Shown: positions 21,230 to 29,397 of the stretch, piece after piece
Numbering within the stretch: position 1 is the first letter of the stretch
How the letters are laid out: each line of letters begins with the position of its first letter
Source: a virus
Taxonomy: Duplodnaviria; Caudoviricetes
IMG/VR virus record: IMGVR_UViG_3300031760_000005
Span: 1-64,000 of that record
Length of the DNA: 64,000 bases
Reading direction: 5' to 3' (one strand)
The notes under the pieces: model-generated
What the model saw: the letters and a program-made list of their open reading frames with translations, nothing else
What the model was told of the DNA's origin: nothing
Database searches by the model: none
Made by a program: the position numbers and the translations under genes

Positions 21230-22041
21230 AACAAATAAACGAATATTTAAAAGAAAATAATATAGTTAGCATTAATGAAATGCTTACTGCTGGTATAGCT
21301 TTTATTGCTGTATTATGTGGAGCATGTGCATTGCATTTCGGTATTAAATTAGGTAGAAAAATTACTAAATATGCTGGTAACTTTTGGGATTGGGCTATAG
21401 GAGAAAAGGATATTGATGCATCTTTATCTATGACATCTGCTAAAGAATCATTAATGGAATCTGAAGATAAATTTGATAAATCAAAAGTACAACCTATGCA
21501 AATAGATACAGCTGAACATCTTCAAATGGTAGTTGATAAATCAAAACCTAAAATGACTAAAGAAGGTGGTAAAGGTTTCTATATATTTCAACAATTATTT
21601 AAAGAAGATCCAGAATTTAAAAAACTTAATAAAGCTCCTTATTATCCAAATTATGTTATATTTATGGATCCAGGTTCAGAAGATAACCCAAATGAAAAAC
21701 CAAATTTTTACGGAATGTTAGGCTTCTCATTAAAATATTGGGAAGTAGTTGCTAAAAAAGGAAAAACAGAAGAAATAAAAAACATAGGGTCTGAATTTAA
21801 AAAATATATAAATATTTTTGCAGTTCAGACTGATCCACAATATGCTAAACAAGGATTATTTGAAATTTATTTAGAATCACTTAAAAAAGCTTGTAAAGAA
21901 GTTAAAGCAGATGGTTTGACAATTAAATTAGAAAATGATGATTTGTCTAAAGTATTTGAAAAGTATGGTTTTAAAAAAATTGAAGGACTTGACAAATATA
22001 TGAGTTTAACTTTAAAGAAAAAGAAAGATGAAAAGGCTTAA
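21226..22041 (+). CDS. GNAT acetyltransferase-domain protein with leader and hydrophobic helix
   Basis: AVQTDPQYAKQGLF (motif A), VFEKYGF (motif B); MKQINEYLKE. Confidence 0.6.
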   Translation: MKQINEYLKENNIVSINEMLTAGIAFIAVLCGACALHFGIKLGRKITKYAGNFWDWAIGEKDIDASLSMTSAKESLMESEDKFDKSKVQPMQIDTAEHLQMVVDKSKPKMTKEGGKGFYIFQQLFKEDPEFKKLNKAPYYPNYVIFMDPGSEDNPNEKPNFYGMLGFSLKYWEVVAKKGKTEEIKNIGSEFKKYINIFAVQTDPQYAKQGLFEIYLESLKKACKEVKADGLTIKLENDDLSKVFEKYGFKKIEGLDKYMSLTLKKKKDEKA

Positions 22042-22363
22042 ACAATTTATATTAGAAGAATTAGACGTAGATATATTTTGGCTATTAGACAAATGGTTTG
22101 AAAGAAATGAAACTCAAAAATCTGAATTTATTGAGATTGTTATTAAATGCATAAAAGATAAAATTATACAAACACCTAAAATTAAAGAATATTTAAAAAA
22201 TACAACTTTAGAAAAAGATTTAGAAGAATTTGTAAATTTTATTGATAATGAAGTTGAACCAGAAAATGAAAAAGATTATTTTGAAAGATTTAAAGTAATT
22301 GTTAAACAAGTAATAAATTGGAAAGATAATAAAAATCCTTATATAAAAAATGAACCAGTTTAA
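22028..22363 (+). CDS. Putative internal head protein
   Basis: MKRLKQFILE leader. Confidence 0.6.
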   Translation: MKRLKQFILEELDVDIFWLLDKWFERNETQKSEFIEIVIKCIKDKIIQTPKIKEYLKNTTLEKDLEEFVNFIDNEVEPENEKDYFERFKVIVKQVINWKDNKNPYIKNEPV

Positions 22364-22377
22364 ACTGGTTCATTTTT
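22346..22377. terminator. Bidirectional terminator (perfect palindrome)
   Basis: AAAAATGAACCAGTTTAAACTGGTTCATTTTT between convergent operons. Confidence 0.85.
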
Positions 22378-22395
22378 GTTTATAATATTTAAATA

Positions 22396-23670
22396 TTATG
22401 CTACTTTCTTAATATGATTAGTCGTATTATCAAAGAATATTACTGAACCATCTTGACGAGATTCATTATTCCAATTTTGAATAACTTTAATTGCTTGTTC
22501 AGTAAGAAATTTTGCCGTTTTTACTGGAACATTTTGACCAATCTTAGGCAAATTACTTTTATCACCAAACCAGTCAAAATCATGTGGCATACCCATAAGT
22601 TCAAGATATTCACGTATATTGCACATACGTTCACCACTTGGATGTATTGATGTTGTAATACTTCTAAATTGAATTGCTGGGAAATGTTCTTTATAATAAC
22701 AACAATCTGAACCGTACCATCCTAATCCTTTAGAAGTTTTATTACGAATATGTTCAATATAATTACGTGTCTTTTCTTTTATTTCTGGCGTCATCTTATC
22801 ATAAGATTCCATAAATGTTAAAAGCTCATTAATAAGATTACGACGTACAATATTTTTCATAAGACAGCAATCTGTATTATCAATCCATTTATCCCCATAT
22901 TTGTATTTGAAGAAATCTATTACTAAATAATTATAGGGCATTGTTTCACATTCATCTTGATTACTAAGACCTTCTGGAATGTTAGCAAAGAATTCTTCAA
23001 TTGTCATTTTATTGTCTACAAAATCTAATGTGGGTACTTTATTTTCTCCATCAATTTTTTGTATAAACATAACAAATGTTCTTGGACGTTTTTGACAATT
23101 GTAATGTTTCCATGTATCTGTCTTATAATAAACTACTACATATCCATTTTCAGCTGCGATTTTCTCAAATTGCTTACGTAATGTATCGCCTCTAAATCCC
23201 ATAAGAGTTGGTGCATTTTCGAAAAGATAAACTTTAGGACGAATTTTAGTCAACGCTAATTTAACTAAATATAGCATATTACAATTACGTTCATTTTTTG
23301 TATCGTCTTTTGCAGATGTAACCATAGACAAACCTGAACATACAGGTACTGCAACAACTACATCTACATCATAATTTGGCTTTGCTGGCTCACCATTAAG
23401 CGTAATTTCAGGATCCATATCATCCAAATTACACTCAAACATTGCTCTATTCATCTTATAATAAGGCACTTCACGATTTACCTTCTTAAGATAGTTAAGC
23501 AAATAAGCTTCATTTGATACAGAAGTAATATTACCTTCTTTATTCTTTTTAATTTCGTCTAAACCATTATACGTCAATATCCATTCGGCAGGATATCCAA
23601 ATGCTTCTTCTGCACCAAGATACATTCCGCCTGTTAATGGTTGTATAGCCGCCCATTTAATTTTACTCAT
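22396..23670 (-). CDS. C5-cytosine DNA methyltransferase-like protein, atypical motif I
   Basis: VPVCSGLS (IV), LFENAP (VI), QKRPRTF (VIII), IREYLELMGMP..F (IX), IGQNVPV (X); motif I reads QPLTGG. Confidence 0.8.
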   Translation of the reverse strand: MSKIKWAAIQPLTGGMYLGAEEAFGYPAEWILTYNGLDEIKKNKEGNITSVSNEAYLLNYLKKVNREVPYYKMNRAMFECNLDDMDPEITLNGEPAKPNYDVDVVVAVPVCSGLSMVTSAKDDTKNERNCNMLYLVKLALTKIRPKVYLFENAPTLMGFRGDTLRKQFEKIAAENGYVVVYYKTDTWKHYNCQKRPRTFVMFIQKIDGENKVPTLDFVDNKMTIEEFFANIPEGLSNQDECETMPYNYLVIDFFKYKYGDKWIDNTDCCLMKNIVRRNLINELLTFMESYDKMTPEIKEKTRNYIEHIRNKTSKGLGWYGSDCCYYKEHFPAIQFRSITTSIHPSGERMCNIREYLELMGMPHDFDWFGDKSNLPKIGQNVPVKTAKFLTEQAIKVIQNWNNESRQDGSVIFFDNTTNHIKKVA

Positions 23671-24163
23671 ATAATTCTCTATATAAATCTTTTTTTAGTT
23701 TCTTTGCTACCCAAATAGCCATGTCTAAATATGCGCCCTGTCCACCATCAAACTCTGTTACATAATTGGCAACTTCTTTAACTTCTTTACGTGATTGTTT
23801 TGGACAAACAAATATGTCACATAAACCATTTTCAGCTATTTTTAAATCACCGATACCATCGCCAAAGAAAACAATAGTATCGTAATCATTTCTTAATGAT
23901 TCTACAAATTTACGACGTTCAACTTCACTATATACCTCTAATCTGCTATTTGACATGTCAGCCAAACGCTTCTGTACAATAGGAAGTCCAGTTTTGTCAG
24001 CAGTCACAAATATAACATCAATATCGTTCTTTTTGAGAAGTTTTACACCTTCGTGATCGCCTACACCAAATTTCTTCATTACCTTACCATTGGAGGTATA
24101 ATACATACCTCCATCAGTAAGACAACCATCTACATCGCTTATTACTACAATTCTATTGTTCAT
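23663..24163 (-). CDS. KdsC-family HAD sugar-phosphate phosphatase
   Basis: DVDGCLTDG, KKF...D..G, FGDGIGD, GGQGA. Confidence 0.85.
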   Translation of the reverse strand: MNNRIVVISDVDGCLTDGGMYYTSNGKVMKKFGVGDHEGVKLLKKNDIDVIFVTADKTGLPIVQKRLADMSNSRLEVYSEVERRKFVESLRNDYDTIVFFGDGIGDLKIAENGLCDIFVCPKQSRKEVKEVANYVTEFDGGQGAYLDMAIWVAKKLKKDLYRELYE

Positions 24164-24165
24164 AA

Positions 24166-25515
24166 TTAAACTTTATTAGGATCAAACACATTCTTAGAGA
24201 AGTGGTCAAATATTGATTCACATCCTTCTTTATTAATATAGTCAAATCCAAGATCTTTTGCAATAGTATTAAAGATAAAATTATTCATTCTTTTACCTGT
24301 CAAATCATCTTCATCAATACAAGCAAAACATTCATTTAAAAGATTTAGATACTTATCCTTGTCGGCATCCAATTCTCTCATCTTATTTAAAAAGTCTTTC
24401 TCATCCTTAAGGTAACAATATTCTGGAAGTCCAAGAAGACGATCTTTATCATAATCAGGGTGAATAAATGGAATCAATCCCTTAATGATCATTTCCCATG
24501 CCTTAACTGTAACAAAACCAGGAAGAATAGAATAAACTAATGAATAACGAGCGTCTGCCACTTCATTATCAAGCTCAACTAATGGCTTGTCAACAATTTG
24601 TGGATATTTCTCATATGTCTTGTCATCCCATGTTCCATAAATCTTTGTACCTTCAAATTCTGTTCCCTTAAGATTATCAATTATATATTTTTTATAACCA
24701 GGAAGACGTGAACTCTTACCACCATTTGCTCTATTTGGATTTTTTTGACCACATCCATTAGAAATTACAATAAGATGTTCACCCTTAGTATTTAACTTAC
24801 GATCAATATCAATATTCTCTTTCCAATTCTTATCAAGACCCATCATAAAGATACGTTCAACATATCCATAAATACACTTAATTTTCTCTGTGGTCTTTGA
24901 CCAATCTGTTTCAGACTTGATGTGTTCTATTGGCTCATAATAACCATTTGTTTGCGTAAAGATAATACGCTCACGATTATATAAGTCAGCAGCATTTGTT
25001 GTAATATAACGCGCGTCTTCTGAAATAAGATAGAATGGAACTCCAGTTTGGTTAAGTGTGTAAATATATGGACCTACATAATTTTTAAATGCGTTCAAAA
25101 CTTTTACATACTCACCAGTCTTATCACTCTTAATAAAGTTAGGTATATTTATAACTGAACACATACCTGACATAAGAAGTGCAAAATCTATCTTAATATC
25201 ATTATCTACAAAATATTGAAGAATAGGAGCAAATGGATGTTTACCTTCTGCTTCATAGTCTGCTCCATATGCTGAATGTACATTATGATTTGGGAAAATA
25301 TAATCATATTCCTCATCACTAAGCTTATTCATCTGATTAGGACCAACCCAGAAGAAATTATATTCTGGGTTCATACGAGCAATTGATGAATAAAAAATCA
25401 TACATGCGTCACCACCTGTACGAATATCAAGATTTTTAAATTTTATTGATTTACCAATTTTACCGATTAAAATGTTTTTTTCTGCTTTACGATTAATTTC
25501 AAATACTGTTTCCAT
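24166..25515 (-). CDS. DNA glycosyltransferase, T4 beta-glucosyltransferase-like GT-B fold
   Basis: C-terminal FVTVKAWEM...FIHPDYD...Y.....F..KMREL parallels the BGT nucleotide-sugar domain; operon with dCMP hydroxymethylase. Confidence 0.7.
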   Translation of the reverse strand: METVFEINRKAEKNILIGKIGKSIKFKNLDIRTGGDACMIFYSSIARMNPEYNFFWVGPNQMNKLSDEEYDYIFPNHNVHSAYGADYEAEGKHPFAPILQYFVDNDIKIDFALLMSGMCSVINIPNFIKSDKTGEYVKVLNAFKNYVGPYIYTLNQTGVPFYLISEDARYITTNAADLYNRERIIFTQTNGYYEPIEHIKSETDWSKTTEKIKCIYGYVERIFMMGLDKNWKENIDIDRKLNTKGEHLIVISNGCGQKNPNRANGGKSSRLPGYKKYIIDNLKGTEFEGTKIYGTWDDKTYEKYPQIVDKPLVELDNEVADARYSLVYSILPGFVTVKAWEMIIKGLIPFIHPDYDKDRLLGLPEYCYLKDEKDFLNKMRELDADKDKYLNLLNECFACIDEDDLTGKRMNNFIFNTIAKDLGFDYINKEGCESIFDHFSKNVFDPNKV

Positions 25516-25521
25516 ATTAAA

Positions 25522-27186
25522 TTATTTTGTTTTTATTGAATTTTCTTTTCCTAATAATTTCATTAAATTTACATATAATGTCAACTTGCCCATATAGAAT
25601 AAAAATTTAGATACTGGATTTAGGAAGTACAATGGAGACATACTTACCCAACATGCACCTGTTATCATTTCAATATATGGAAATCTTACACCATAGTTAT
25701 ATTCTACAAATTCTTTTAACACTTGTTTACAATCATATACATAATTATTGCAAAGAATATTTATATATATATCATTTGGATCTGACTCATCAATGTAAAA
25801 TAAATCATTATATGCACTATTAAAATTAAATGTAATATTATGATTCATTTTACCAAAGTCATAATTCTTATCTCCATATTTTACGATTTCAATAAAGTTA
25901 GGACGCCAGTCTAATAAGATATACTTATCATTCTTTCTGTCATATAACATGTTATCTAAAACAAAATCGCCATGCCATCCAGTTGGACATGAATTTTTCC
26001 ACTCAGGTAAATTCATCATTTCTTTAAGCATTCTTTCTATTGTCCACTCTTTGGGAATAAGAATATCATTTACATATATGTCATGATCTTCATCAACTTT
26101 ATAAAAATCTTTAAATTGATTTACTCTATCTATATTTTTCTTAATATAGAATTTCTCCATAGAGGAAAAAAAAATGTTATCATCAACCTCTTCAGTTTTA
26201 TCCTTCCAAAAATCATTATCCTTAAGATAATTCATTAATTTCTTAAAACGTACAGGATTCATTTTATCGATAGCATTTTCTGCATCAATATAATCATAAC
26301 ATAAAAAGTTTTTAGTGTATTCTGTTATAGGTTGACAAAAATCTTTAATCACTTCATAATGACCAATCAAATCATCAACTACACCATCTTTCGCAAAGAA
26401 CTTAATTACTTTATTATTGATAATAAAAATTGCTTGATCGTTTTTATCAAGAATAAAAAATTGATCTTTACAAGCTTTACGAGCATTCTTTACGCCTGCA
26501 ATATTACCAGTATCTGTCCAGTTATCAACTTTAATTGCTCTTAAATTATTTTTGAACATACCATACTTATGATAAACCAAGAAATCATAAGGAGTCTTTT
26601 CATTTTCAAGAGCTTTATGCATGTATTCCCAGAATGTCTTATAATCATATATACCGCAAATACCAATAAATGATAACATACCTGCCAAAGAATCAGGCTT
26701 CATATAAGTCTTAATCAATTTATAAGACTCATATTTACCTTTAAGTCTTGTATTTACATCATAGTCAAACGCATCATATAATTCAGAATTAAGGGTTTCA
26801 TATCCTACTAAGAAGTTATAATCAAACTTCATAGGAATTTGTTCTTGAAGATTATCAACTATAGTATCGCAATCATGATAAATAAATGGTTCTTGTAAAT
26901 ATTTCTCAGCTTGTAATTGTGAATAAACTTGAGAAGATCCAGGACCATCATATTTATCAACTTCAACTAATGTAATATTCTTATTAGGATATGCTAATGA
27001 AAGATATTGTCTTACATGATCACCAAAATAACCTAATGAAATTACAAATTCCGTATCTTCAGGATATGAGTCAATAATATAAGAAATAACTGGACGCTTG
27101 CCAATCTTAATCATTGACTTATTTGTATATTTGGTAAGTTCAAGTAATCTTGAACCAATACCGGAAGTTGTTATAAATACTTTCAT
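25522..27186 (-). CDS. Sugar nucleotidyltransferase fused to APH/choline-kinase-like phosphotransferase
   Basis: N-term SGIGSRL..LT....K, HDCD, WTDTG; C-term HGDFVLDN, LLDWR, GDKNYDFGK. Confidence 0.85.
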   Translation of the reverse strand: MKVFITTSGIGSRLLELTKYTNKSMIKIGKRPVISYIIDSYPEDTEFVISLGYFGDHVRQYLSLAYPNKNITLVEVDKYDGPGSSQVYSQLQAEKYLQEPFIYHDCDTIVDNLQEQIPMKFDYNFLVGYETLNSELYDAFDYDVNTRLKGKYESYKLIKTYMKPDSLAGMLSFIGICGIYDYKTFWEYMHKALENEKTPYDFLVYHKYGMFKNNLRAIKVDNWTDTGNIAGVKNARKACKDQFFILDKNDQAIFIINNKVIKFFAKDGVVDDLIGHYEVIKDFCQPITEYTKNFLCYDYIDAENAIDKMNPVRFKKLMNYLKDNDFWKDKTEEVDDNIFFSSMEKFYIKKNIDRVNQFKDFYKVDEDHDIYVNDILIPKEWTIERMLKEMMNLPEWKNSCPTGWHGDFVLDNMLYDRKNDKYILLDWRPNFIEIVKYGDKNYDFGKMNHNITFNFNSAYNDLFYIDESDPNDIYINILCNNYVYDCKQVLKEFVEYNYGVRFPYIEMITGACWVSMSPLYFLNPVSKFLFYMGKLTLYVNLMKLLGKENSIKTK

Positions 27187-27199
27187 ATTACTTTAAATA

Positions 27200-27889
27200 T
27201 TAATTATTAATTTTTATTGCATTACGTAATTCTTCTACACTTTTTTCCAATGGTTGATCTTTTCTAAACAAACCTGATGTTCCGCCAACAAATATGTCAA
27301 CACCATCTTTTGATAATTTCTTTGCTCTATCAACAGATACTCCTCCATCAACTGATACTGCAATATTATTATATCCAATTGAATCTAAATAATTTCTAAC
27401 ATATAAAGGCTTATTCAATATACCTCTAATAATTGGTTGACCAGCAAATCCAGGATTAATCAACATAACCAATATCATATCAGTATGTGTCAAATTATAA
27501 TCACTAAAACCTTCAATAGATGTTTCAGGATTGATAGCTATTCCAATTTTTACGCCACGTTTCTTAAGTGATACTAAATATTCGAATGCTTCATTAAAAT
27601 TTTTATTGTCTATTTCAGCATGTATAGTAACAATATCGCCTTCTGACAATTCCAATCTTTCAATAAACATCAACGGATTGTCTACCATTAAATGATAATC
27701 ACATGGCAATTTTGTTACACGATGAATTGCATTTAATATGTCAGGACCAAATGTAATATTATTCACAAAATGTCCATCCATTGCATCTAAATGCAGCATA
27801 TCTATACCTAACTTTTCTAACTCTTCTATGTCATGTGCCAAATTCATTAAATTTGGTGTACACATTATTGATGCTGATATCTGTTTCAT
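27200..27889 (-). CDS. Ribulose-phosphate 3-epimerase family, AlsE (allulose-6-P 3-epimerase)-like
   Basis: HLDAMDGHFV, DYHLMV, NPET, PGFAGQP, VDGG, GTSGLF; N-term SIMC. Confidence 0.85.
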   Translation of the reverse strand: MKQISASIMCTPNLMNLAHDIEELEKLGIDMLHLDAMDGHFVNNITFGPDILNAIHRVTKLPCDYHLMVDNPLMFIERLELSEGDIVTIHAEIDNKNFNEAFEYLVSLKKRGVKIGIAINPETSIEGFSDYNLTHTDMILVMLINPGFAGQPIIRGILNKPLYVRNYLDSIGYNNIAVSVDGGVSVDRAKKLSKDGVDIFVGGTSGLFRKDQPLEKSVEELRNAIKINN

Positions 27890-28668
27890 GATTTTTTAAT
27901 TTTATTTGATTGTTCATTTAACTGTTGATAGTAATTATAAACATTTTGCTTTGTCTCAAAACTTGTTAGGATGTCAAAATGTCTTTCATAAATATGCAAT
28001 GAACCGGCATTCCAATACATATTACCTTCTATTAAATTCTTACCATATTTTTCAAAATAACGATTATGTAAATTATCAGTTAATTTAACTAATACATCCC
28101 ACATCCATAGCGCATCATTGTTAAAACCAAATACTGCATCATTTGACCTAAAATTAACAATGCAATCTATATAGTCATTTTTGTCATCATATTCATTTAT
28201 AAAATACTGAACATTTTGGCAACACATAAAATCATGCATTCCATCTTTATTATAATCTTGTTGCATAGATGGACGATTATAAATCATTATTGCTTCACGA
28301 GTATGTGGATCATTTAACAAATGTTGTGCGCAATTATCAAATTGGTACCCATTATCTTTTGAAAATATACACCAACCATAATTTGAATTGATATAACCCA
28401 ATGGTGTTGCACACACTTTCCACATTTTTGGAGCACCTCCCGGTATGTCATTCACATTTAATGATTGTGATAAATACCATGCCTTTTCTCTATCGTAATA
28501 ATCATAATTAGGTTCACGAACAATCCAACATTTATCAACTTCAAAATGCGCATTTTGAATTTCCAATGTTTTTGATTGTTGAACTGCATTACCAATTATA
28601 CGAAACTCATTTTTTTCATATTTGTTAATAAAAATATTGAATATATCTCTTGTATTCATATTATTCAT
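27886..28668 (-). CDS. dCMP hydroxymethylase (T4 gp42-like)
   Basis: DIPG..PK.W, INSNYGW, RPSMQ.DYNKDGM.DFMC, RSNDAVFGFNND (cytosine-specifying Asp), GSLHIYERHF. Confidence 0.9.
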   Translation of the reverse strand: MNNMNTRDIFNIFINKYEKNEFRIIGNAVQQSKTLEIQNAHFEVDKCWIVREPNYDYYDREKAWYLSQSLNVNDIPGGAPKMWKVCATPLGYINSNYGWCIFSKDNGYQFDNCAQHLLNDPHTREAIMIYNRPSMQQDYNKDGMHDFMCCQNVQYFINEYDDKNDYIDCIVNFRSNDAVFGFNNDALWMWDVLVKLTDNLHNRYFEKYGKNLIEGNMYWNAGSLHIYERHFDILTSFETKQNVYNYYQQLNEQSNKIKKS

Positions 28669-29206
28669 TTATAAATTTCCATGCGTCATCATATATTTCT
28701 TTAGGTAATCTAAATTGATCACCATCATTAATATATATAAGTTGTTTTTTAGGTAAAATAGATTTATCAAAAATTTTTTTAAAACGGTCTACTTCCTTAT
28801 GAATGTATTCTATTTTGTTTTTTGATAAAGATTTACCATCGTCATTATTAAATAAAAGCTTATCAGAATTACATAATAATTGAATATAATAAACATCAAT
28901 ATTATGTTTTAAATATATTTCATCAATTTCATTAATAATATCTAAAGCATCATTATCAGATATACCTCTATATAAACATCCATAGACATATTCTCCATAA
29001 TGACTTCTATTTAATATAACTGCATCAGTATCATAAACTTTGTTTACAATAGAATATGCATAACCTCTGAAAATTGTATTTTGAATATATTTATTTTCAG
29101 GTTTTGTATAATGAATATTAGTAACAGTTAAAAAATTTTCTCCTAATTTATTTATGAGTGTGTTTTTTCCACAATTATCAGGACCTTCAACAATAATTAA
29201 TTTCAT
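28661..29206 (-). CDS. dNMP/thymidylate kinase-like protein
   Basis: EGPDNCGKNT P-loop, NRSHYGEYVYG..YR. Confidence 0.85.
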   Translation of the reverse strand: MKLIIVEGPDNCGKNTLINKLGENFLTVTNIHYTKPENKYIQNTIFRGYAYSIVNKVYDTDAVILNRSHYGEYVYGCLYRGISDNDALDIINEIDEIYLKHNIDVYYIQLLCNSDKLLFNNDDGKSLSKNKIEYIHKEVDRFKKIFDKSILPKKQLIYINDGDQFRLPKEIYDDAWKFINE

Positions 29207-29337
29207 TAAATTCTATAACATATATTTCTATTATGAATATAGAACATTTTTAATTAATTTTTAGAAAAATCTGTATTTTTATTCTAAATAAATTCTTATA
29301 TTCATCTTCATAATTTAATATAGAAATTAGAGAATAT

Positions 29338-29348
29338 TTATTTTTAAT
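29338..29348 (+). promoter_or_regulatory. Putative late promoter motif TTATTTTTAAT
   Basis: Recurrent 11-mer. Confidence 0.45.
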
Positions 29349-29397
29349 AAATATGATTTATATTCATATTCATTTATAAATATTTTAATTAAATCTA

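Follow-up and report, generated by a model that had tools for sequence, protein, structure and literature searches.

The first 64 kb of the 157,695-bp IMG/VR virus record IMGVR_UViG_3300031760_000005, which is the whole stretch analysed here and is called the window below, carries a compact seven-gene operon (positions 22396-29206) that probably encodes a DNA hypermodification system. Its products would make 5-hydroxymethylcytosine (5hmC) at the nucleotide level, activate a sugar with phage-encoded enzymes and attach it by means of a DNA glycosyltransferase (GT). The prediction is built on gene families, folds, diagnostic residues and synteny. A first-pass annotation had named the same seven families, and all seven assignments hold in profile, PDB and structure-model matches. 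The seven open reading frames (ORFs), all on the minus strand, have exactly the coordinates given there and are tightly packed, with four junctions overlapping by 4 or 8 bases and the remaining junctions spaced by 2-10 bases. The palindromic terminator that had been placed at the end of the operon was also recovered. The genes (g1 to g7) and their flanking features are as follows.

g1, 28661-29206, minus strand, 181 aa: YorR/thymidylate-kinase-like P-loop nucleotide kinase
g2, 27886-28668, minus strand, 260 aa: T4 gp42-type dCMP hydroxymethylase (5-hydroxymethyl-dCMP synthase)
g3, 27200-27889, minus strand, 229 aa: Rpe-family ketose-phosphate 3-epimerase with AlsE-like loop motifs
g4, 25522-27186, minus strand, 554 aa: sugar-1-phosphate nucleotidyltransferase (residues 1 to ~250) joined to a protein-kinase-like sugar kinase (residues ~270-554)
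g5, 24166-25515, minus strand, 449 aa: GT-B glycosyltransferase, T4 beta-glucosyltransferase (BGT)-like
g6, 23663-24163, minus strand, 166 aa: HAD-IIIA phosphatase of KdsC/YrbI type
g7, 22396-23670, minus strand, 424 aa: C5-cytosine DNA methyltransferase (MTase)-like protein
Palindrome, 22346-22377, no strand: bidirectional and intrinsic-terminator-like, with a 14-pair stem, a 4-nt loop and A-run/T-run flanks; it ends both the operon and the convergent plus-strand gene 22028-22363
Intergenic region, 29207-29397, no strand: AT-rich and divergent, upstream of g1; putative promoter region, in which sigma-70-like matches were not above shuffled expectation

The record has a GC content of ~26%, contains a baseplate gene of myovirus type and is ~55% complete according to CheckV. 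The whole 157.7-kb record was screened by tblastn with T4 gp56, gp43, gp41, uvsX, gp44 and gp61 and with the RB69 sugar genes (gp45-55), and none of these had a match; gp42 was the sole exception in the combined RB69/T4 screen. Together these features indicate a jumbo-phage fragment, and the unmatched T4 replication genes set the phage apart from the T-even group and Straboviridae. Two candidate identities were rejected on these results, namely a T4-like phage and a member, at the sequence level, of the Afh cluster that arabinosylates RB69 DNA.

Base-forming genes and the predicted 5hmC handle

The product of g2 matches the crystallised T4 dCMP hydroxymethylase (PDB 1b49) with an E-value of 5.5e-56 and is about 45-50% identical to T4 gp42, compared with 21% to RB69 gp48. 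It has a thymidylate synthase (TS) fold, and the catalytic Cys (T4 C148) is present and aligned within a DFMC motif. Asp occupies the equivalents of two ThyA positions, N177 (FGFNND, against FGFRND in T4) and L143 (HDFMC, against SDFMC in T4), of which the former is associated with cytosine specificity and the latter with water access. Both Asp residues are kept in all g2 orthologues of related operons.

A third position bears on the identity of the base. According to a 2026 paper (PMC13326640), the DNA of RB69 and DLP3 carries arabinosylated 5-hydroxycytosine (5hoC), not arabinosyl-hmC, and the maker of the 5hoC is a flavin-dependent TS homologue; RB69 gp48, long annotated as a hydroxymethylase, is a proven 5hoC synthase. 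The same paper reports that every tested 5-hydroxy-dCMP synthase has Asn where E. coli ThyA has D169, while hydroxymethylases retain Asp. In our alignment this position falls in RSND in both g2 and T4 gp42, and in RSQN in RB69 gp48. Since g2 keeps the Asp, its product should be 5-hydroxymethyl-dCMP (hm-dCMP), and the predicted base is 5hmC rather than 5hoC. The earlier call of 5hmC is thus borne out at the level of this residue.

An altogether different base appears very unlikely. In that case g2 would make 5-hydroxy-dCMP or another C5 derivative, or g7 would create an acceptor at the DNA level, and the sugar would sit on a different handle. The history of RB69 gp48 provides a precedent, and both the co-conservation of g7 with the GT and a second, truncated TS paralogue in relatives could be read in this way. 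The close identity of g2 to the crystallised T4 enzyme and its retained Asp argue for 5hmC instead. No TET/JBP dioxygenase that would convert 5-methylcytosine (5mC) to 5hmC was found, in a weak search whose control was positive in no genome. The truncated paralogue (196 aa) is a second TS-like gene inside the operons of the two closest relatives, at L005:4110-4700 and L006:4057-4647, and is absent from the window; it keeps the Cys and both Asp residues and is missing ~40 residues.

For g1, the matches are phrog_761 (thymidylate kinase, E 4e-13) and, as the best PDB hit, SPbeta YorR (2axp/3kb2). Pairwise alignment with RB69 gp45, which serves as nucleotide kinase in the arabinosylation cluster, gave 29% identity (E 2e-9). 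Its role would be the conversion of hm-dCMP to hm-dCDP. A dCMP deaminase gene elsewhere in the record (PF00383, 4e-25; 143708-144169, minus strand) would fit a phage that controls pyrimidine pools.

Putative sugar-activation genes and their cellular counterpart

Three genes, g3, g4 and g6, appear to form the sugar arm of the operon. The g3 product belongs to Pfam PF00834 (Ribul_P_3_epim, 2.6e-50), and among solved structures it is closest to E. coli AlsE, the D-allulose-6-phosphate 3-epimerase (3ct7, 5e-36; Rpe, 2e-31). On the NCBIfam models it scores 181 bits for rpe and 172 bits for AlsE (NF007266, cut-off 271), both under cut-off. The metal ligands H33, D35, H66 and D181, corresponding to the His/Asp/His/Asp of the Rpe-family barrel, are invariant in the alignment, and the motifs MC, GFAGQP and GTSGLF match AlsE rather than E. 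coli Rpe.

The g4 product is a two-domain protein for which the AlphaFold2 (AF2) model has a predicted local distance difference test (pLDDT) score of 91. The N-terminal domain is recognised by NCBIfam nucleotidyltransferase models (1e-10) and, in profile searches of the PDB, by LicC, RmlA and G1P-CT; Foldseek with the model returned GalU, LicC and PntC, and VIA-align gave Z 23.4 against LicC. The C-terminal domain has a protein-kinase-like fold, aligns with fructosamine-3-kinase and LicA choline kinase (Z ~14, VIA-align) and conserves the HGD..LDN motif. When g4 was compared using hhalign with the RB69 proteins, its kinase domain matched gp52 (probability 88.7, E 2.6e-6) and its nucleotidyltransferase domain matched gp53 (E 6.7e-5). 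These profile comparisons make g4 a distant homologue of each half of RB69 gp52:53 (AfhE-type), with identical domain order.

The third member, g6, matches TIGR01670 over its full length (2.9e-21; 76 bits, cut-off 107) and a KDN-9-phosphate phosphatase model (1e-21), the latter also under cut-off. Its PDB relatives are 2p9j (7e-17) and KdsC 1j8d (3e-13); HAD motif I, DVDG, lies at residues 10-13, consistent with the small, cap-less fold of the KdsC type. Its role would be to strip the terminal phosphate from a sugar bisphosphate. A precedent for such a sequence of steps is the RB69/HY126 route, as set out in PMC13326640. There an isomerase yields arabinose-5-phosphate, the kinase domain of AfhE (RB69 gp52:53) phosphorylates C1, the HAD phosphatase AfhF removes the 5-phosphate and the nucleotidyltransferase domain of AfhE makes UDP-arabinose; HY126 AfhE is described as having both sugar-5-phosphate 1-kinase and UDP-sugar pyrophosphorylase activities. 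For the operon, an order in which the kinase first makes a 1,n-bisphosphate and the phosphatase follows is likewise likelier than phosphatase then kinase.

Cellular metagenome-assembled genomes (MAGs) frequently encode g4 homologues at 30-40% identity, and some of these proteins, of ~700 aa, are fused to a KdsC-type phosphatase (P0168, 702 aa; P0174). We scanned one genome per prokaryotic species and labelled the neighbours of these genes with hidden Markov models (HMMs) from in-house seeds. In 42 of the 78 cellular loci (among L104-L180, L010 and L011; for example L105:4725-8097 and L117:4623-8018) the genes follow one strict order: an isomerase with a SIS domain resembling 6-phospho-3-hexuloisomerase (PHI), an Rpe/AlsE-like epimerase, the nucleotidyltransferase-kinase and a KdsC-like phosphatase. 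A truncated form of this order occurs in 10 more, and the nucleotidyltransferase-kinase and phosphatase stand alone in 20. The hosts are chiefly Patescibacteria, with Bdellovibrionales and Bacteroidota MAGs in addition, and the neighbourhoods are surface-glycan loci with GT2, GT1, DegT and TylF genes. The cellular cassette is a predicted and so far unannotated nucleoside diphosphate (NDP)-sugar pathway in its own right. The sugar module of the operon appears to descend from this cassette and not from the Afh route.

The isomerase separates the cassette from the arabinose pathway. The SIS protein of the cellular cassette scores 197-200 bits on the PHI model (cut-off 160) and 33-38 bits on KdsD/KpsF, and RB69 gp55 scores oppositely, as a KpsF/KdsD type. 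A 185-kb phage contig that has the isomerase (L102) reaches 114 bits on the PHI model, and the KpsF/KdsD models give 22-38 bits across the cassette isomerases. In the 157.7-kb record and in three relatives, including a 410-kb genome that is 97% complete, we found no SIS/PHI-like gene.

On the identity of the sugar, our leading and tentative guess is a rare hexose or ketohexose. The allosyl, psicosyl and xylulosyl forms named in the first-pass annotation are likewise guesses, and complete cassettes contain in addition the PHI-like isomerase gene, of which that annotation could not have been aware. A hexose derived from fructose-6-phosphate is placed first because both sugar-converting enzymes, the AlsE-like epimerase and the PHI-like isomerase of the complete cassette, resemble enzymes that use this substrate; the PHI family also acts on fructose-6-phosphate. 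The slightly higher score of g3 on rpe than on AlsE calls for caution here. A pentose is less likely, and some other sugar is less likely again, if only by a little. Arabinose in particular is disfavoured because the isomerase is of the wrong type (PHI-like, not KdsD-like). An arabinosyl-5hmC would require that g3 supplies ribulose-5-phosphate from xylulose-5-phosphate, that a host KdsD-type isomerase converts it to arabinose-5-phosphate and that g4 and g6 carry it on to NDP-arabinose. The remote homology of g4 to gp52:53, a phosphatase of the Kdo-pathway type and the rpe score of g3 fit such a route. The isomerase of the complete cassette, in cells and in phage, is nevertheless of the PHI family and not of KdsD/GutQ type, g3 has AlsE loop motifs with AlsE as its best solved relative, and BLAST detects no similarity to any RB69 sugar gene. 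We consider arabinose improbable, and a hexose from fructose-6-phosphate remains the preferred sugar.

Glycosyltransferase, methyltransferase-like gene and recurrence in phages

No Pfam, PHROG or NCBIfam model matched g5. Its AF2 model is of high quality (pLDDT 92, predicted template modelling score 0.91), and in a Foldseek search of the PDB the T4 BGT structures 1qkj, 1c3j and 1bgt ranked first, third and fourth, with E-values of 4e-7 to 4e-6 and template modelling (TM) scores, by target, of ~0.5-0.64. A weak C-terminal tblastn match to T4 b-gt was also seen (E 0.016). The family comprises 324 metagenomic clusters. We infer that g5 is a DNA hmC glycosyltransferase. It is taken to act on DNA because T4 BGT is its best fold match, because genes for nucleotide metabolism and a DNA methylase overlap or abut it and because the nucleotidyltransferase-kinase/GT pair adjoins a TS homologue in distant phages. 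An additional GT-A glycosyltransferase (Glyco_tranf_2_4) lies within the related operons at L005:7103-8017 and L006:7046-8005 and is absent from the window; this extra gene suggests a disaccharide in those phages.

The g7 product matches Pfam PF00145 (DNA_methylase, 2.2e-17), the match beginning at residue 88. Motifs PVCSGLS (IV), ENAP (VI), QKRPRTF (QxRxRTF, VIII) and GQNVPV (X) are invariant among five homologues at 33-62% identity. Motif I is atypical, reading IQPLTGG without the Phe and the first Gly of FxGxGG, and in the ESM Atlas only viral C5-MTase clusters were returned. At least seven loci (L001, L005, L006, L008, L100, L102 and the P0057 contig) have a g7 homologue together with the GT, sometimes in two copies. 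The g7 product is possibly an associated C5-methyltransferase that would methylate residual unmodified C, and no other feature of the operon is as poorly explained as this association.

The gene set recurs beyond the window. The whole seven-gene order is present in L005 and L006 at 45-88% identity, with the nucleotidyltransferase-kinase and the GT the two most conserved genes (80-88%), and the order occurs with small changes in L008 and L019. The 185-kb contig L102 has all gene families in a different order together with the PHI-like isomerase; here, and likewise in one 244-kb contig, the complete cassette including the PHI-like gene sits between the GT, MTase and TS genes. The nucleotidyltransferase-kinase/GT pair lies beside a TS homologue in Pseudoalteromonas phage XG4, in Enterococcus phage Planchet and in the jumbo contigs L008, L019 and L102, and the adjacency persists between phages with GTs of only 26-28% identity. 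The cultured Enterococcus phages 9183 and TJE4 also have this core of TS, nucleotidyltransferase-kinase and GT. Because the same gene order and families recur in independent viral contigs, the association of the operon genes is not chance. The synteny search in other jumbo phages that had been suggested as a check was therefore positive.

These patterns also bear on whether the GT could use a host NDP-sugar such as UDP-glucose. The hmC would then be glucosylated, and g3, g4 and g6 would serve, for example, pentose-phosphate rerouting or glycosylation of the virion or host surface. T4 BGT is the closest fold of g5, some GT homologues are without sugar genes within 8 kb (L101), and the cellular cassette is located in surface-glycan loci, all of which would suit this explanation. 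The overlap of the genes within one operon, the persistence of the kinase-GT adjacency between very divergent GTs and the fact that these two genes are the most conserved of the operon point the other way. We give this alternative a small chance and favour a GT that is supplied by the operon's own sugar genes.

Several other contigs show related gene combinations. In a 403-kb phage contig (L100:5102-13386), a member of the GT family occurs with a GT-like paralogue and two C5-MTases, and the sugar module is different: its nucleotidyltransferase stands alone and is joined by a HAD protein resembling beta-phosphoglucomutase and by a kinase-like protein. The GT/MTase core thus appears to swap sugar-supply cassettes. 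About 70 viral contigs from IMG/VR (L020-L096) encode a nucleotidyltransferase-kinase homologue at ~35% identity with no TS, GT, MTase, epimerase or KdsC gene detected nearby by the in-house HMMs, and often also a second, related gene of ~450 aa. In these contigs the enzyme is probably not for DNA modification. As most of the contigs at this identity have no TS, GT or MTase nearby, the fusion alone is no predictor of DNA modification. Finally, the 410,106-bp relative L005 (also L103) is ONIZ01000001.1, a 97%-complete virus in IMG/VR that belongs in GenBank to a rumen MAG, under the title 'uncultured Firmicutes bacterium RUG343 scaffold_25'. A megaphage genome was probably placed in a bacterial bin here, and this relative hints that the phage of the window, too, came from the rumen; rumen or gut is its probable source.

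Proposed pathway and comparison with known systems

Our proposal assigns all substrates, the acceptor and a biological role from the gene families. Before replication, g2 would turn dCMP into hm-dCMP, g1 would phosphorylate it, a host NDP kinase would complete the triphosphate and the phage polymerase would incorporate hmC. In parallel, g3 would divert a central ketose phosphate, most likely fructose-6-phosphate to allulose-6-phosphate. The kinase domain of g4 would phosphorylate the anomeric hydroxyl, the resulting bisphosphate would lose its terminal phosphate to the KdsC-type phosphatase g6 and the nucleotidyltransferase domain of g4 would produce the NDP-sugar. After replication, g5 would move the sugar onto the hydroxyl of hmC in DNA, and the resulting sugar coat would protect the genome against restriction, CRISPR and nucleases specific for glucosyl-hmC.

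A more specific version of this proposal is offered tentatively. The base may be a previously undescribed one, 5hmC O-linked to a rare sugar such as psicofuranose, allose, altrose or another hexose derived from fructose-6-phosphate. Four enzymes (PHI-like isomerase, AlsE-like epimerase, APH-fold anomeric kinase fused to a pyrophosphorylase, and KdsC-like phosphatase) would supply the sugar through an uncharacterised NDP-sugar route that jumbo phages captured from surface-glycan loci of the Patescibacteria type, and the C5-MTase-like enzyme would have a dedicated role.

Several observations weigh against these proposals. The domains of g3, g4 and g6 all fall under the curated cut-offs of named equivalogs, so that their specificities are not transferable, and the PHI-like isomerase of the complete cassette was not found in the lineage of the window. 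Given this absence, the pathway here may depend on the host or may yield a different product. A MazG-type dCTPase was found neither in the record nor in the 97%-complete 410-kb relative, and the record has no tblastn match to the T4 gp56 dCTPase. With no dCTPase found, replacement of C may be partial, and full substitution is not established. One candidate for a functional stand-in is a divergent dUTPase-family ORF (258 aa here; record positions 87999-88310, minus strand) that this phage and three relatives (including L182 and L183) all conserve. In fully hmC-substituted DNA a C5-MTase such as g7 would be without an obvious substrate. The record is itself little more than half complete, and in the literature we found no description of such a cluster, nor of an allulose-6-phosphate/nucleotidyltransferase or hexuloisomerase-epimerase-transferase cassette.

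The nearest described system is the Afh pathway for arabinosyl-5-hydroxycytosine of phages RB69, DLP3 and HY126 (PMC13326640; Mahler et al. 2025 and He et al. as cited there). Both systems combine in one cluster a YorR/TMK-like nucleotide kinase, a TS homologue acting on dCMP, a bifunctional nucleotidyltransferase-kinase, a HAD phosphatase, one or more GT-B DNA glycosyltransferases and a single enzyme drawing a ketose phosphate from glycolysis or the pentose-phosphate pathway. They differ in the base enzyme, which in the operon is of the hydroxymethylase type (Asp at D169), predicting 5hmC rather than 5hoC, and in the sugar-diverting enzyme, an Rpe/AlsE-like 3-epimerase in place of a KdsD-like arabinose-5-phosphate isomerase, with a PHI-like isomerase added in related cassettes. 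The phosphatase of the operon is also of KdsC/YrbI type, its GT is BGT-like and a C5-MTase-like gene belongs to the conserved set; neither g6 nor g5 has detectable sequence similarity to RB69 gp51 or gp46:47. The first-pass annotation had likewise invoked the arabinosylating phages of the RB69 type. The parallel stands for the strategy of self-supplied sugar, and the logic of an own NDP-sugar followed by a GT acting on hmC is supported by synteny and by the remote homology to the gp52:53 fusion. It fails for the base, which in RB69 is arabosyl-5-hydroxycytosine made through Afh (PMC13326640). Since the Afh pathway has been described, the operon is a variant of a described strategy and not unprecedented.

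With the T-even phages (T4 gp42, gp1, gp56 and the alpha- and beta-glucosyltransferases) the operon shares a gp42 homologue, a BGT-like GT-B fold and the scheme of pre-replicative hmC followed by post-replicative glycosylation. T4, in contrast, takes UDP-glucose from the host without sugar-activation genes and is without a C5-MTase, and searches of the phage of the operon detected neither a dNMP kinase of the gp1 family nor a homologue of the gp56 dCTPase.

In its predicted reaction logic the operon, like the cellular cassette, is identical to the NDP-heptose pathway (GmhA, HldE/HddA kinase, GmhB and HldC/HddC). That pathway uses a SIS isomerase, an anomeric kinase giving a 1,n-bisphosphate, a HAD-IIIA phosphatase and a nucleotidyltransferase, with the kinase and transferase fused in HldE. 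The kinase of the operon, however, has an APH/choline-kinase fold rather than a ribokinase or GHMP fold, a 3-epimerase is added and the isomerase of the cassette is PHI-like, not GmhA.

A further comparison is provided by phage clusters of C5-methyltransferase, TET (5mYOX) and glycosyltransferase genes, in which a C5-MTase lies beside a DNA glycosyltransferase that decorates 5hmC and in which, in some cases, a partner sugar epimerase is required for GT activity (PMC8256090; bioRxiv 10.1101/2023.12.21.572611). The operon shares the C5-MTase next to the DNA glycosyltransferase. Its hmC would come from a nucleotide-level hydroxymethylase instead, the weak search found no TET/JBP, and its epimerase would act on ketose phosphates, whereas those of the 5mYOX clusters act on NDP-sugars.

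If confirmed, the operon would enlarge the small set of phage DNA glycosylations (glucosyl- and gentiobiosyl-5hmC, arabinosyl-5hoC, hexosyl-5hoC and the TET-dependent glycans) by a novel sugar and a novel NDP-sugar pathway, and the self-supplied sugar strategy would have evolved at least two times, on two cytosine handles. Because the GT family has hundreds of metagenomic members and occurs in phage genomes of 185-410 kb, the modification may be widespread among jumbo phages that have not been cultured, and both their sequencing and their response to restriction may be skewed by it. Selective labelling of 5hmC is a potential use of the GT and of the NDP-sugar enzymes. The strategy itself is already known; the operon departs from the described case in its handle, in the enzymes that divert the sugar, in its GT family and in its association with an MTase.

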